The notes: generated from the letters alone by a model not told the origin. DNA of 52,696 bases from a virus (IMGVR_UViG_3300042934_001015:1-52696); one strand, 5' to 3'. Positions 11,116-15,493 are shown, counted from the stretch's first letter. Numbers and translations are program-made.

Positions 11116-11139
11116 AAAAAAGAGCCCCAAAAGGGCTCT
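11116..11139 (-). terminator. Terminator after recombinase
   Basis: AGAGCCC-TTTTG-GGGCTCT-TTTT on the minus strand. Confidence 0.7.
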
Positions 11140-12130
11140 ACATAACGTGATATTTTTTAAACGCTTGCTGTTTACGTTCTTCTGACACGTTTGCGTACAC
11201 CAAAGTAGTACTTGGATTACTATGCCCCATTAGATGCTGCAGATCAGTTAATTCAATACCAGCATCCATTGATAGCGTAGCAAAGGTGTGTCTCATGACG
11301 TGTGGATGCAATTTCTTTTTTATTTTAGATGCTTTTTCGATAATGTTAATTTCTTGTTGTATGGACCTATTTCCTAAGCGACCATAAGGTCTTTTTCCCG
11401 TCACAAAGAGTGCTTCGTTATCATCCGTACGACTTTTTAAGTACCTATCCAAAAACCGTAAAGCCTTAAAGGATAGATAGACCACTCGTTCTTTGTCACC
11501 TTTACCGATAACCTTACAACTCATAGACTGTAAATTAATATCCTCTTTGTTCAGACTCGCTAATTCAGACAATCGACAACCTGTGGAATAAAACACTTCA
11601 ATTAACGCGCGTTGCCTCAATGTTTTACATGATTCTCTAACAGTCTCTAATTCTTCGATGCTTAAACCTTTAGGCAGTCGTTTTGGCTTTTTAGGCAATT
11701 TAATTTTCAACGTTGGATCACGTAGCAGCACTTCTTCTTGGACGAGCCAACCAAAAAAACTTTTAAGTACTGATAACTTTTGTCCAATCGTACTCATTTG
11801 CGCTTTATTAAAAGATGCTAGGTATGCCCTAATGTCAGCGGTTGTAACTCTTACAGTTGCTTTTTGACAATGCTTGCTAAACAAATTAAGCTCACCTTTA
11901 TACCCTTTGATTGTCTTTTTGCTAAGCCCTTCAATCAATTTTGAGGATAAATACAACTCTATTTTTTCTGGAATGTCCTTTTCAAGCTGTAAATCTGATT
12001 TTCTACTAATCTCGTAGTTGCTTAAAACCTCTTCGAGCCTGACTTCAAGCCTGTTCATTTCTGCATCAGGGGCAAGTGTAGTAACAACAACTAACAGATC
12101 ATTGGCTAGACGGGCTGTATCGTTTATCAC
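11138..12130 (-). CDS. XerD-like tyrosine recombinase embedded in the tail module
   Basis: SAM-like N-domain, TGCRLSE, GKGDKER, HVMRHT, MGH, LVY all intact; GTG start after GAGGAGG. Confidence 0.93.
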   Translation of the reverse strand: MINDTARLANDLLVVVTTLAPDAEMNRLEVRLEEVLSNYEISRKSDLQLEKDIPEKIELYLSSKLIEGLSKKTIKGYKGELNLFSKHCQKATVRVTTADIRAYLASFNKAQMSTIGQKLSVLKSFFGWLVQEEVLLRDPTLKIKLPKKPKRLPKGLSIEELETVRESCKTLRQRALIEVFYSTGCRLSELASLNKEDINLQSMSCKVIGKGDKERVVYLSFKALRFLDRYLKSRTDDNEALFVTGKRPYGRLGNRSIQQEINIIEKASKIKKKLHPHVMRHTFATLSMDAGIELTDLQHLMGHSNPSTTLVYANVSEERKQQAFKKYHVM

Positions 12131-12148
12131 CTTTGTTCCTCCTCTTTT

Positions 12149-12218
12149 GTTACGTTTAACGTAATTATACACTGTTACTATTTACGTGACAAGTATAAAA
12201 TGTTAAGTTAAACGTAAC
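12149..12218. promoter_or_regulatory. Three 17-bp operators (GTTAC-N7-GTAAC) between the divergent recombinase and HTH genes
   Basis: GTTACGTTTAACGTAAT 12149-12165, GTTACTATTTACGTGAC 12174-12190, GTTAAGTTAAACGTAAC 12202-12218; perfect 16-bp inverted repeat 12145-12160/12207-12222. Confidence 0.75.
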
Positions 12219-12236
12219 AAAATAAAGAGGTGGATT

Positions 12237-12480: not shown

Positions 12481-12509
12481 AATCCTCAGTTACTTCGCTA
12501 TATTCTCCG
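12481..12509. repeat. Degenerate direct repeat copy B (candidate recombination site)
   Basis: 20/29 identical to 14830-14858 (14/18 in the core). Confidence 0.35.
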
Positions 12510-12540
12510 ATTGTGGCATAAGTGAAAATAGAAAAAGACC

Positions 12541-13065
12541 TTAATCAAGGTCTTTTATTTTCTTTGCTGGCACTCCTGCATATACAGAATTAGGCTCGCA
12601 ATCTTTATTAACTAATGAACCAGCAGCGATAACCGTGCCATTTCCAATGGTGACTCCTCCTAATATAGTACTACCAGAGCCTATCCAACAACCATCCCCT
12701 ACACTGATTGGCAAAAAGACACTTTCACCAGCTCTTTTATTACTATCTCCAACCTCATGTGAGTCTGAAATAAGCATCACTCGTGGACCTATCGCTACAT
12801 TTTTGCCTATTTTTACATTAGAACGAACTACACATTGTTGATTAATGAAAGTGCTATCTCCAATCAGTACGGGTCTAGTTGGAGTTCCGTGAATTTCTGT
12901 CTTTCTGAAAATAGTTACTTTATCCCCTATTTTAACTGATCCCTTTTCACTATCCCAAAATGTTATTTTACCAAAACTACATTGTTTCCCAATTTCATAT
13001 TTCGCAGAGTATAATTTTGCTCGCAATCTCATAGGTAAAACCTTTATTATTTTCTTTATCAGCAT
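12541..13065 (-). CDS. Hexapeptide-repeat O-acetyltransferase (maltose/galactoside/WcaF-like)
   Basis: Left-handed beta-helix repeats; SDSHE, VGDGCWIG, GVTIG, VYAGVPAK. Confidence 0.9.
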   Translation of the reverse strand: MLIKKIIKVLPMRLRAKLYSAKYEIGKQCSFGKITFWDSEKGSVKIGDKVTIFRKTEIHGTPTRPVLIGDSTFINQQCVVRSNVKIGKNVAIGPRVMLISDSHEVGDSNKRAGESVFLPISVGDGCWIGSGSTILGGVTIGNGTVIAAGSLVNKDCEPNSVYAGVPAKKIKDLD

Positions 13066-13165
13066 GAATAAACCAATCCCTCATTTTTTTCTTTAAGTAT
13101 AATAGAATTATATTTGAAAAGGAATTGTTTTCAAAAAATGGGAAAAATATTTTTATTTAATCCTA

Positions 13166-15493
13166 TTAAACCCATCTACTGACAAATATAGATTTTCCCG
13201 AACTCGTCGCACTCGGTAATGCAGTTTCAACGCTTCTTACTGTTCCACTATTACTTGTAACTTTTGTCCAATGAGTCGCCCCATTATCCAATTGTATCCC
13301 GATAACGTCACCTGTAAGCACTTCAGCGTTTGATGTTAAACCTATAGTTGTCGATCCCCCTGCAAAACTTCCTGTTACAGTTGTTGATAGCGCTAATGTA
13401 CATTGATAATATCCACCTGTTGTTTTAGGGATAATTTCACCTAATTCCGCAATTCCGCTGGTAATTGCAGACGTTACAATCACGGGTTTTGTTTTAGTGG
13501 AAACAAAAGGAATAACCTTATCAGTTTTATATTTTAATACTTCAAGCCATATACGGACATTGTTAAACCATATTGGACATACGTTACTAGCTTTCAATAC
13601 CAGCTTTACATACTTCAAACGCCCATCTTTATTAACAACAACCCGTTTATCTCCACTTAATGCAACATCTTCTCGATAATATCCTTCTTGATACCATTTA
13701 GCATTTCCTGATACAATATAGGTTGGATTATCTGTTTGTGCAATCGGTTGTTTATTACTGTCATAGCAATAAACAAATAAATTCCACGCTATTTTATCGG
13801 ATAGATAATTAATAGTTTGAATCCCATCAATAGGGATAAAATCAGAAGTAAAAACGGTACTCCAGTTGGTTTGAAGTAAAAAGTTATCTATGCCTGGATA
13901 AAGACTAGGTGCATACCCTTTTTTGTCCATAAATCCATTGATATTTCTATCCTTAGTGTTTACCTCAAATACGGTTAAGGAATCAACGTATTTTGTCCTT
14001 TTGTAGTCGATGAAGTTTCCTGCTCCGTAGTCCACCAAATTAATATGAGTACTAATCCCCAGCGCAATTGCATTAACATTTGGCATAAAACTTACTTCCA
14101 CGGTGTTATTCCTAGTTTTTACACCAAAAGACACAGTAATACCAGCATACTCGCACCGACAATCAATAAAATGGTTTGAATGTCCGTTTTGAATATTTAT
14201 AGCAGTTCCAGCGTGTTCAATAACTGGAGAATAGAATATATTGTTGTTATGTTGGTATGTCCCATCAATTTTTACTTCTTTTAGTCTTCCACCGAAAAAC
14301 TTATTCTCATTAATCCATTGAATTACATTTCCGCTTGCTGGAGAAGGATTCGTTAAAAATTCAAGAAGGTCAACTCTTCCCAAATAAAAAGAGTTATATG
14401 CGATATAACTTCCATCCACTAAATCACTGTCAGCATAAAGTTGAACATTCAAACAATATCCTATTTTTATATTGCTATTTACTGCTCCAATAACCCTAAT
14501 CCCTACTCCACCTTGTGGTAGTAAAACTGTGCTAATTAATTGGTTTACATTTAAGTTGTTGTCGCTTCCAAGGGTTAAACCAATTCCGTTGAAATCTACT
14601 TTGATTTCGCCTTGTATATCGACTTCTTTTATAGCTCTCAAATTTACGTTTTTAGTGATTCTCAATGAATACTTAGGGGCTAAGTACAGACGTTTATTGT
14701 TAGTTTTTGCATATTGCGCAGCAGCAATAAAAGCATCACTGTCATCTACAATACCATTACCTACTGCACCAAAACGACTATCCATTACATCTACAACAAT
14801 ATTCCCTAATACCGACTCATTTTCTGCCAAAGCCGAAGAAACTTCGTTATAATCATCGTCCAATCTTTTCTTTAATGAGGACTTGGTTACACCTTTTGCA
14901 TCCACTGCAGCCTGTGCTGCTGCAGGTGAAGAATCGCCTTCCATAACGATGTTATCAAGTTGTAGACGGACGTTGTTTGCTGTTGTCTCTGCTGTAGTTG
15001 CTTTTGACTCAGCCGAGGTAGCTTTTGTTAATGCTGAAGTCGAATTTGTGGAGGCAGTTTTTGATTTTTCAATCGCATCAACTAGGAGCGATTCGTTGGC
15101 GATGACTAAATTTCGTTCGTCGTTTGGCAAATCTCCATCCATAGATGGGTCTTTTTTGACCACATAATCGAACTTTGCTGTAGATATTCGCTTCATGTCT
15201 TCGTCAAAGATTTGGAGGGTACCTTCCACTTTACCTGGTACGGTCATTTCAGAAGTTCCTAACTCCACACGAACAAGACCATTACTAAAATTTGCATCAC
15301 GAATAACAGGATTACCTTTTAATTTTTTTGATACGAATTGATAACTGTACGTATCCAACAATGGGAATAAAACAGCATCCTCATACACTTCTATTTCAAA
15401 AACGATATTATCGTTTGCTACAATTTCTGGAATATCTCGAAACATCTTTTTTTTTGTATTTACAGTAATCTGATAAATATTTTCTACAGCCAT
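13166..15493 (-). CDS. BppU-type baseplate anchor fused to a pectate-lyase-like beta-helix tailspike (depolymerase/RBP)
   Basis: BppU N-domain (PGKVEGTLQIF...ISTAKF), Ala/Thr coiled coil, FGAVGNGIVDDSDAF tailspike signature. Confidence 0.85.
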   Translation of the reverse strand: MAVENIYQITVNTKKKMFRDIPEIVANDNIVFEIEVYEDAVLFPLLDTYSYQFVSKKLKGNPVIRDANFSNGLVRVELGTSEMTVPGKVEGTLQIFDEDMKRISTAKFDYVVKKDPSMDGDLPNDERNLVIANESLLVDAIEKSKTASTNSTSALTKATSAESKATTAETTANNVRLQLDNIVMEGDSSPAAAQAAVDAKGVTKSSLKKRLDDDYNEVSSALAENESVLGNIVVDVMDSRFGAVGNGIVDDSDAFIAAAQYAKTNNKRLYLAPKYSLRITKNVNLRAIKEVDIQGEIKVDFNGIGLTLGSDNNLNVNQLISTVLLPQGGVGIRVIGAVNSNIKIGYCLNVQLYADSDLVDGSYIAYNSFYLGRVDLLEFLTNPSPASGNVIQWINENKFFGGRLKEVKIDGTYQHNNNIFYSPVIEHAGTAINIQNGHSNHFIDCRCEYAGITVSFGVKTRNNTVEVSFMPNVNAIALGISTHINLVDYGAGNFIDYKRTKYVDSLTVFEVNTKDRNINGFMDKKGYAPSLYPGIDNFLLQTNWSTVFTSDFIPIDGIQTINYLSDKIAWNLFVYCYDSNKQPIAQTDNPTYIVSGNAKWYQEGYYREDVALSGDKRVVVNKDGRLKYVKLVLKASNVCPIWFNNVRIWLEVLKYKTDKVIPFVSTKTKPVIVTSAITSGIAELGEIIPKTTGGYYQCTLALSTTVTGSFAGGSTTIGLTSNAEVLTGDVIGIQLDNGATHWTKVTSNSGTVRSVETALPSATSSGKSIFVSRWV
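14830..14858. repeat. Degenerate direct repeat copy A at the anchor/tailspike domain junction
   Basis: Encodes DDYNEVSSAL just before the beta-helix domain; 20/29 identity to 12481-12509. Confidence 0.35.

Follow-up and report, generated by a model that had tools for sequence, protein, structure and literature searches.

The 4.4-kb stretch at positions 11116 to 15493 of the virus record IMGVR_UViG_3300042934_001015 (52,696 nt, rated complete in IMG/VR; the record at its full length is referred to here as the window) carries, between the tail genes Dit and Tal, a gene for a Xer-like tyrosine recombinase (Rec). Comparison with related loci indicates that genes of this kind are systematically linked to the receptor-binding/cargo part of phage tail modules, and that near-identical phages differ in one segment ending just upstream of Rec, at a sharply conserved 19-nt motif. 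To judge from its sequence, the stretch has a three-part architecture, i.e., a receptor-binding protein (RBP) gene, an acetyltransferase moron, and a self-contained recombinase module in which Rec is paired with a divergent helix-turn-helix (HTH) gene. We tentatively propose that Rec, held off by the HTH protein, recombines DNA at the 19-nt motif, because the motif accompanies Rec to mid tail module in the loci where Tal or Dit follows Rec, is unique per genome, and has no competitor in the module as a candidate site; for the mechanism as a whole we would put the probability somewhat short of an even chance.

A preliminary description of the window had placed four genes between Dit and Tal, a BppU spike, an acetyltransferase, an HTH gene, and a recombinase, all of which were confirmed by profiles. 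It had also seen in them a single receptor-specificity cassette bounded by repeats. That idea is partly supported, in modified form: the stretch is not a single cassette but consists of three parts, with no second motif copy for the acetyltransferase.

HTH plus Rec as the conserved unit

In a profile-guided survey of Rec, 477 of 589 pattern-matched IMG/VR stretches encoded a relative, and the best 80 were examined; relative loci, mostly from IMG/VR phages, are designated here by L-numbers (L003, L140, etc.). Conserved flanks around a cassette, as the preliminary description had expected, were not what emerged, and the conserved unit is instead HTH plus Rec itself. DNA homology with five relatives whose Rec is 73 to 89% identical is limited to positions 11117 through approximately 12469-12483, the left edge of the module being given by the end of homology to L003, L005, and L006 (at 12469-12483) and the right edge by that to L003, L004, L006, and L007 (at 11116-11117). 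Window DNA is also present in two public soil-metagenome runs (X1 and X2), one of which is perhaps its source; upon alignment of their contigs to the window, X1 gave almost no pieces, and the run-X2 contigs of an L003-like relative diverged at 11132 and 12469. Both module ends carry a hairpin, with compensatory changes in all eight loci compared at the Rec end and with compensatory stem changes in L005 and L004 on the HTH side. These hairpins were considered as Rec sites and rejected, their structure being kept by compensatory changes like that of terminators.

Rec belongs to the tyrosine recombinase superfamily (PF00589, E = 4.9e-33), and its best PDB matches are XerA and XerD. It passes the XerA-type profile NF040815 marginally (223.7 bits; cut-off, 220), falls below the XerC/XerD equivalog cut-offs (TIGR02224, 219.9 versus 335; TIGR02225, 201.1 versus 330), and fails the integron-integrase profiles (TIGR02249, 91.5 versus 265; NF011946, 54.6 versus 435). 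Residues R200, K224, H291, R294, H317, and Y326, which we take to be the catalytic R-K-H-R-H/W-Y set, do not vary among six Rec homologues, consistent with an intact active site as assumed in the preliminary description, whose view that Rec is distinct from the phage integrase also holds, the latter being split over the window ends (SAM-like N-terminal half, 52108-52695; catalytic half, 2-571). The true start of Rec is likely the GTG at 12127, giving 329 aa, because relatives begin at aligned residue 16 and a good ribosome-binding site precedes this codon.

The two palindromes that flank the Rec promoter (within 12145-12222) vary with the HTH type and not with Rec in L003 to L006 and L012, Rec staying 73 to 89% identical in the relatives. 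Since they change together with the HTH while Rec stays similar, they are predicted to be operators of the HTH protein, which most likely represses Rec; the same covariation led to their rejection as a Rec site. Long repeats across the whole window were at chance level and were likewise rejected. As for palindromes with 11-nt arms, only one lies near Rec, inside the spike gene, and their number is about that expected by chance in a simple estimate.

A 19-nt motif upstream of Rec

The motif, with the consensus GGAnnAWAnTGYGCARTAA, is single copy in the window, where the next best match on both strands over 52.7 kb scores 14.5 bits. After removal of near-duplicates, which preceded both the motif and the breakpoint counts, 36 of 71 unique loci had a match of at least 15 bits on the Rec strand within 1 kb upstream, compared to 1 of 213 shuffles. 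On the other strand of that interval there were none (0/71), and in the downstream 1 kb there was one (1/68). Conservation is sharply delimited, beginning at motif position 1 and ending at position 19. Usually the motif lies directly against the stop codon of the gene before it. What follows is the HTH terminator or, in loci lacking an HTH, the Rec promoter.

Three other identities for the motif were tried and rejected, i.e., the coding end of an open reading frame (ORF), since third-codon positions are more conserved than second; a start context, the spacing to the Shine-Dalgarno-like GGA being too short; and an Rfam RNA family, all matches lying far under the gathering scores.

Swaps and cassettes ending at the motif

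L140 and L160 illustrate how near-identical phages differ: they are 93 to 99% identical except for L140 5867-7770 versus L160 5973-7770, with a left breakpoint at approximately residue 115 of an RBP-like protein and a right breakpoint 206 nt before Rec. Both are prophage records of one IMG/VR genome series, with 16 kb shared, including Rec and the motif, and with different RBP distal parts. The same swap pattern was found in L112/L116, L128/L138, and L119/L120/L131. In an all-against-all comparison, 41 high-scoring segment pairs started at -10 to +9 of motif position 1, versus 0 to 4 per 10-nt bin farther upstream, and 20 distinct locus pairs did so within -6 to +4 (e.g., L119/L120/L131, L140/L160, and L105/L115). 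The motif may also be where phages with and without Rec part company, as in L120 (with Rec) and L203 and L232 (Rec-less), which have the upstream gene and the motif in common and diverge at the motif's 3' edge.

On the left side, the breakpoints fall within conserved coding sequence of the anchor, carry no motif copy, and have no motif in common with the right breakpoints. The locus alignment hence bears out one half of what the preliminary description had predicted, namely, unrelated cargo between a breakpoint in the RBP anchor and another upstream of Rec, but not the other half, a motif at the left breakpoints.

In 6 of the 71 loci (L096, L098, L100, L105, L110, and L138), two or three direct motif copies with unrelated flanks bound segments of 350 to 870 nt. 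L110 differs from L105 by one additional segment, with a 231-aa ORF, together with a degenerate copy of the motif; the insertion point is exactly the motif. Among the cassette cargo, one ORF belongs to the Phage_gp49_66 family. No excision or inversion junction was found in the soil-run contigs, which cannot reveal rare excision products, and neither an excised circle nor an empty site was observed. A second variable slot was noted right behind the Rec terminator: in L105 (6644-8408), approximately 1.8 kb with a 374-aa and a 143-aa ORF has no counterpart in L115 (3566-3600), with homology on both sides.

The preliminary description had Rec excise or capture a 2.35-kb segment, comprising the beta-helix domain and the acetyltransferase, between two copies of a 29-nt repeat and in frame with the anchor. 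We consider this very improbable. The repeat exists with the 20/29 identity originally given, and shuffles of a 240-nt junction zone, chosen post hoc, reached 20/29 or better in 0.5%; as a pair, however, it is weak: 16% of base-shuffled spike genes match the 88-nt intergenic stretch at 20/29 or better at least once, and many equal or better chance repeat pairs lie within the same 5.5 kb. As for the copies being recombination sites, the right one (12481-12509) does contain the conserved 19-nt motif, but the best motif score in the left one is -5.1 bits. Joining the two copies would moreover send the anchor frame into the terminator and the HTH antisense strand, and no relative has a motif-bearing breakpoint inside the RBP gene.

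The sharpness of both module edges fits another reading, in which HTH-Rec is itself a selfish integrative element of small size whose target is the motif where RBP regions end, Rec-less motif phages being empty targets. The module DNA is 84% identical between the window and L003 and the flanks are unrelated, a repressor plus a recombinase is the usual kit of an integrative element, and L120 (occupied) and L203/L232 (empty) diverge right behind the motif. An inserted element is harder to reconcile with the region beyond Rec, where there is no second motif or direct repeat (only 1 of 68 loci reaches 12 bits within 1 kb downstream), and with L119/L131 and L140/L160, in which homology continues from the motif through Rec and for another 2.5 to 8 kb into the phage genes beyond. 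The compared loci yielded neither a clean pair for the right-hand junction nor a clean Rec-plus/Rec-minus pair with both flanks alike. We regard the selfish element as unlikely.

Position of the module among phages

Gene maps were drawn with a simple ORF caller for 84 loci, the window included, and Tal, Dit, BppU, and HTH labels were assigned with profiles iterated from the window proteins; labels can be missed, and the majority of the maps are unclassified. Of the 80 examined loci, L103, L136, and L146 had no full Rec ORF in the first mapping and L136 had none in the second. Tal was found at most 5 ORFs downstream of Rec in 14 of the 84 maps (window included) and at most 7 ORFs upstream in 9. 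In eight loci (the window, L038, L098, L102, L114, L140, L142, and L164) the order is complete, running from Dit through a large RBP-like protein and optional small genes to Rec and Tal, with Tal confirmed by Pfam in the window, L038, and L140. We read the RBP/cargo/Rec order as a recurrent lineage-level architecture and not a one-off insertion. The block stays together, with the recombinase module always behind the RBP/cargo region, and sits either before Tal or before the lysis genes.

The linkage of the recombinase to the receptor-binding/cargo region, implied by the preliminary description, is therefore borne out in the relatives' loci, and the pairing of a spike with an acetyltransferase, also singled out there, recurs in L095 and L109. 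The genes upstream of the module vary, e.g., a Wzy-like gene (L003), Abi_alpha (L005), or a BppU-beta-helix protein plus a hexapeptide acetyltransferase (L006), and downstream lie holin and lysin (L003, L006, and L007) or tail-fibre-like genes (L004). Two cultured phages, Terrisporobacter TPELB_ph1 and Clostridium phiCp-D, have, behind the last tail gene and ahead of the holin, an "integrase" of approximately 40% identity; TPELB_ph1 also has a serine integrase and phiCp-D has ParM. The large proteins just upstream of Rec homologues often have carbohydrate esterase-type domains, such as GDSL/SGNH in L015 (5619-7994) and an annotated polysaccharide deacetylase in phiCp-D (L009, 6374-8833), which fit polysaccharide receptors whose acetylation matters.

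Proposed mechanism and motif copies without Rec

The module comprises, in order, the 19-nt motif, a bidirectional terminator, the XRE repressor, an operator-covered sigma-70-type promoter, Rec, and a terminator. In the proposed mechanism the motif would be an asymmetric simple site beside its recombinase gene, as in Cre/lox or Xer/dif-type modules. Tandem motif copies would recombine, with cassettes inserted or deleted as a result. Spike and cargo would be swapped together by one site-specific crossover at the motif, between co-resident phage genomes, and one homologous crossover in the RBP anchor/linker. Where a phage has the motif and not Rec, that copy would serve as a partner site, acted on in trans or by Xer enzymes of the host. 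By extension, many Bacillota siphophages might carry a tail-module cassette platform, i.e., a repressor-controlled Rec and a 19-nt site at the stop codon of the last receptor-binding gene, which sheds and captures morons (acetyltransferase, Wzy-like, Abi, and small ORFs would be its cargo) and swaps host range; at this breadth the idea is speculative and, in our estimation, rather unlikely.

Several observations weigh against the proposal. The position matrix was built from motif instances read by coordinate and was trained on the same loci that it scored. No motif of at least 12 bits is present in 28 of the 71 Rec loci, and none of at least 14 bits was found in TPELB_ph1 or phiCp-D. Nor does the motif have an arm-spacer-arm dyad of the kind that tyrosine recombinases usually act on; a 12-bp partial palindrome is all that it contains. 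When IMG/VR was scanned for the exact pattern, 86 stretches matched, 80 of them listed; among the listed matches with at least 1.5 kb downstream, Rec lay within 3.5 kb in only 5 of 59. Twenty-six matches were inspected: 14 lie inside unrelated ORFs, and 10 come from Rec-less phages, in which the motif occupies the intergenic space separating the last tail gene from a terminator and holin. Six Rec-less motif-bearing records that are 96 to 100% complete contain at most a recombinase fragment of 29 to 34% identity, and L185, with no Rec in the 8 kb examined, has a gene flanked by two motif copies. In the window itself, the far side of the acetyltransferase is without a second motif. Finally, selection together with homologous recombination would likewise be expected to leave sharp breakpoints next to a hypervariable gene.

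These points lead to a different explanation, in which the motif is a Rec-independent element of the tail operon end (regulatory, 3'-end, or conserved linker) and RBP and cargo are swapped by ordinary recombination, homologous or illegitimate, with selection acting at gene borders. Rec plus HTH would then be another moron in a hotspot for accessory genes, and Rec would do other work, e.g., genome multimer resolution or circularisation at some other site. We hold this to be a real possibility, if on the doubtful side. Complete Rec-less phages have the motif at the same relative place, usually with a terminator immediately behind it, and Rec-less pairs break at the motif too (L182/L203, L216/L226, and others). 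The left breakpoints fall in conserved RBP-anchor coding motifs, as homologous exchange predicts, and the module is built promoter-gene-terminator like a moron. Homologues precede the holin in phiCp-D, a plasmid-type phage with ParM, as well as in TPELB_ph1, which has a serine integrase.

A border element should, however, stay at the border between tail and lysis genes, and where Tal or Dit follows Rec the motif is instead found with Rec in mid tail module (L038, the window, L098, L102, L108, L110, L112/L116, L114, L128, L140/L160, and L142), L164 alone being without a motif. Its uniqueness per genome fits a site better than a generic gene-end signal. Nor was another candidate for the Rec site found: the non-coding parts of the module vary by locus, with no significant long repeat or suitable palindrome near Rec. 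An integrating phage, moreover, hardly needs a dimer resolvase. The comparative pattern as such is solid; the enzymology of Rec acting at the motif is what we infer from it.

TABLE 1 Annotated features of the window from the tape measure gene to Tal, in minus-strand order
Feature	Position	Strand	Remarks
Tape measure	16906-19896	-	
Dit	15484-16905	-	473 aa; Pfam Sipho_tail + SPP1_Dit; PHROG 202 Dit, E = 8e-95
RBP	13166-15493	-	775 aa; BppU_N, residues 9-116; linker, ~176-265; probable beta-helix spike, ~230-775
Left repeat copy	14830-14858		Inside RBP linker; nothing marks a site
Acetyltransferase promoter, sigma-70-type	13107-13134	-	TTGAAA-16-TATAAT; 11/12 consensus matches
Hexapeptide-repeat sugar O-acetyltransferase	12541-13065	-	174 aa; Pfam Hexapep, E = 9e-20
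Bidirectional terminator hairpin behind acetyltransferase	12533-12556	both	Terminator scan
19-nt junction motif	12490-12508	-	19.4 bits; inside right repeat copy
Terminator hairpin over HTH stop codon	12433-12468		Inverted repeat + terminator scan
XRE/Cro-type HTH	12237-12452	+	71 aa; HTH_26, E = 7.5e-19; divergent from Rec
Predicted operators, two 20-nt palindromes	12145-12164 and 12203-12222		Flank Rec promoter; inverted repeat, 95% complementary
Rec promoter	12164-12192	-	TTGTCA-17-TATAAT; 11/12 consensus matches
Tyrosine recombinase Rec, Xer-like	11138-12172	-	344 aa as called; Pfam Phage_integrase + SAM-like domains
Intrinsic terminator over Rec stop codon	11121-11139	-	Terminator scan; module right edge
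Tal	8441-11098	-	885 aa; Pfam Prophage_tail

The acetyltransferase

Like Rec, the acetyltransferase is organised as a moron, with its own promoter and terminator among late genes, on consensus matches only in both cases. The G+C content is lowest of the region at this gene (0.29). Its nearest NCBIfam families are galactoside, NeuD, and WcaF-type acetyltransferases, all under the cut-off. It is likely a lysogenic-conversion gene, probably expressed in the lysogen, where its product would O-acetylate a surface-polysaccharide precursor.

Tail genes around the segment

The minus-strand order is tape measure, Dit, BppU_N protein, acetyltransferase, (HTH, on the plus strand), Rec, Tal, a 112-aa protein, holin, and amidase. 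The Dit stop overlaps the start of the RBP gene by 10 nt, and the latter is translationally coupled to Dit. The RBP is of the BppU type (BppU_N, PF10651; E = 4.9e-7; 30 bits versus a cut-off of 23.1), its residues 234 to 646 match the tail fibre family PHROG 18162, and its linker resembles those of the L004 and L015 RBPs. Searches with the spike part gave no Pfam match and no PDB sequence match. Its language-model/structure look-alikes are beta-helix tailspikes (score 0.89; TM 0.5 to 0.56), at lead level only, and an L006 protein of like architecture matches Beta_helix (E = 1.7e-36); the C-terminal part of the RBP is a probable beta-helix spike.

The nearest relative of both the window Dit (47% identity) and Tal (71% over residues 1 to 364) is L010, which is without Rec and in which Tal directly follows Dit, in the same 10-nt overlap that is used by the spike gene in the window. 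Set against L010, the window has as extra DNA everything from the spike start up to that of Tal. The Tal ribosome-binding site and GTG start lie directly behind the Rec terminator, and a 593-nt run-X2 contig covers this Rec-Tal junction (10747-11339) without differences. Upstream of the window Tal, the ribosome-binding stretch is similar to the one that precedes the holin in both the window and L003, as though a holin-type start context had been adopted by Tal. Before the holin, the window (7958-8130) and L010 (15080-15245) share a small ORF of approximately 46 aa and an identical 20-nt terminator stem.

Genome and source

The integrase halves at both window ends identify the window as a circularly permuted temperate phage genome with its own integrase, opened inside the integrase gene; the frames of the halves are not exactly joined at the ends, two bases being left between them. 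A CI-like repressor and an ImmA-type peptidase adjoin the integrase. Behind the integrase stop there is a 26-nt inverted repeat pair (570-595/830-855) which may be part of the attachment region. A direct repeat of 26 nt (85%; 4290-4315/51322-51347) overlaps promoter-like sequences before a 95-aa ORF and the ImmA-type peptidase gene and resembles a shared operator, perhaps an SOS-type box. FtsK/SpoIIIE-like, Replic_Relax, and T4SS-pilin-like genes, i.e., conjugation-type genes in a siphophage genome, lie at 870-3180 between the lysis genes and the integrase, and the same trio is found in L003 (13947-16282) with 39 to 71% identity to those of the window. Choline-binding repeats in the amidase and in a convergent 401-aa protein (5221-6426, plus strand/6502-7413, minus strand) hint at a host with choline-containing teichoic acids.

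The assignment to Bacillaceae prophages made at the outset is not established, the window being a soil-metagenome virus contig whose nearest genomic Rec relatives are in Sporosarcina, Paenibacillus, and Rummeliibacillus (51 to 54%). A Rec-alignment scan of genome contigs returned mostly chromosomal Xer-like genes (30 to 38%) and a few prophage relatives (45 to 54%). Megablast of 8441-16905 against GenBank phages gave no match. As IMG/VR queries, the window Dit protein retrieved no relative and Tal retrieved one, L010. There was no RNA dataset among the public runs containing the window stretch.

Significance and comparison with known systems

Receptor-binding genes and the adjacent superinfection/defence morons are the fastest-changing parts of temperate phages, and their precise exchange is usually ascribed to chance recombination plus selection. 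If the proposal made here is true, a regulated recombinase with a defined 19-nt site would mean directed host-range and moron turnover in Gram-positive phages, would account for the unexplained recombinase genes inside structural modules, and would provide a natural site-and-enzyme pair for modular phage engineering in laboratory strains. Even if Rec is unrelated to it, the motif is a sharply defined, widely shared mosaic junction, usable to delimit RBP/cargo modules in prophage annotation. The presence of recombinases inside structural modules has already been noted as unexplained (PMC9703825). Full-text literature searches gave, in the portions of articles retrieved, no description of a recombinase-RBP linkage or of the 19-nt motif.

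One comparison in the published record is with 160-kb phages encoding a Xer-like recombinase, whose gene is, as here, co-oriented with the tail genes and has a candidate site beside it. Their recombinase gene, however, has the neck genes on one side and the tape-measure gene on the other, and the site proposed for it, an 11-6-11 inverted repeat, lies downstream. No link of that recombinase to RBP/cargo variation is reported in the available sections of the account.

Integrons share with the loci described here a tyrosine recombinase gene that has variable, often promoter-bearing accessory genes 5' of it, a repressed recombinase, and, in some loci (L110, L100, and L105), short direct repeats between cassettes. 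They differ in that the repeats in the phage loci are one 19-nt sequence motif and not structured attC hairpins, in that Rec fails the integron-integrase profiles, and in that the phage cargo lies in both orientations, with a dedicated XRE repressor and a platform inside a tail module. Single-recombinase modules of the Xer/dif and Cre/lox types and the "dif modules" of plasmids, which are bounded by Xer sites, resemble the present case, a Xer-like enzyme with a unique short site beside its gene; site-bounded cassettes and hybrid genomes could be by-products. Orphan sites with no recombinase linked to them exist as well. Unlike Xer/dif, the motif has no 11-6-11 dyad, and the separate integrase leaves a resolution role not obvious.

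Shufflons and tail-fibre invertases (Rci/sfx, Gin, and Cin) likewise link a recombinase to receptor-binding genes, and the Rci site is asymmetric, with approximately 19 conserved bases. The window, in contrast, has neither alternative C-terminal segments nor inverted site copies, with no significant inverted repeats around its RBP gene and no inverted motif within 1 kb upstream of Rec in the 71 loci, so that exchange here would take place between genomes or by insertion/deletion and not by inversion. In P22- and Sf6-like phages, a polysaccharide-directed spike lies beside a surface-modifying acetyltransferase with a recombinase nearby, much as in the window. That recombinase is the integrase at the prophage end, whereas the enzyme in the window is a second, Xer-like one inside the tail module of a Bacillota siphophage.

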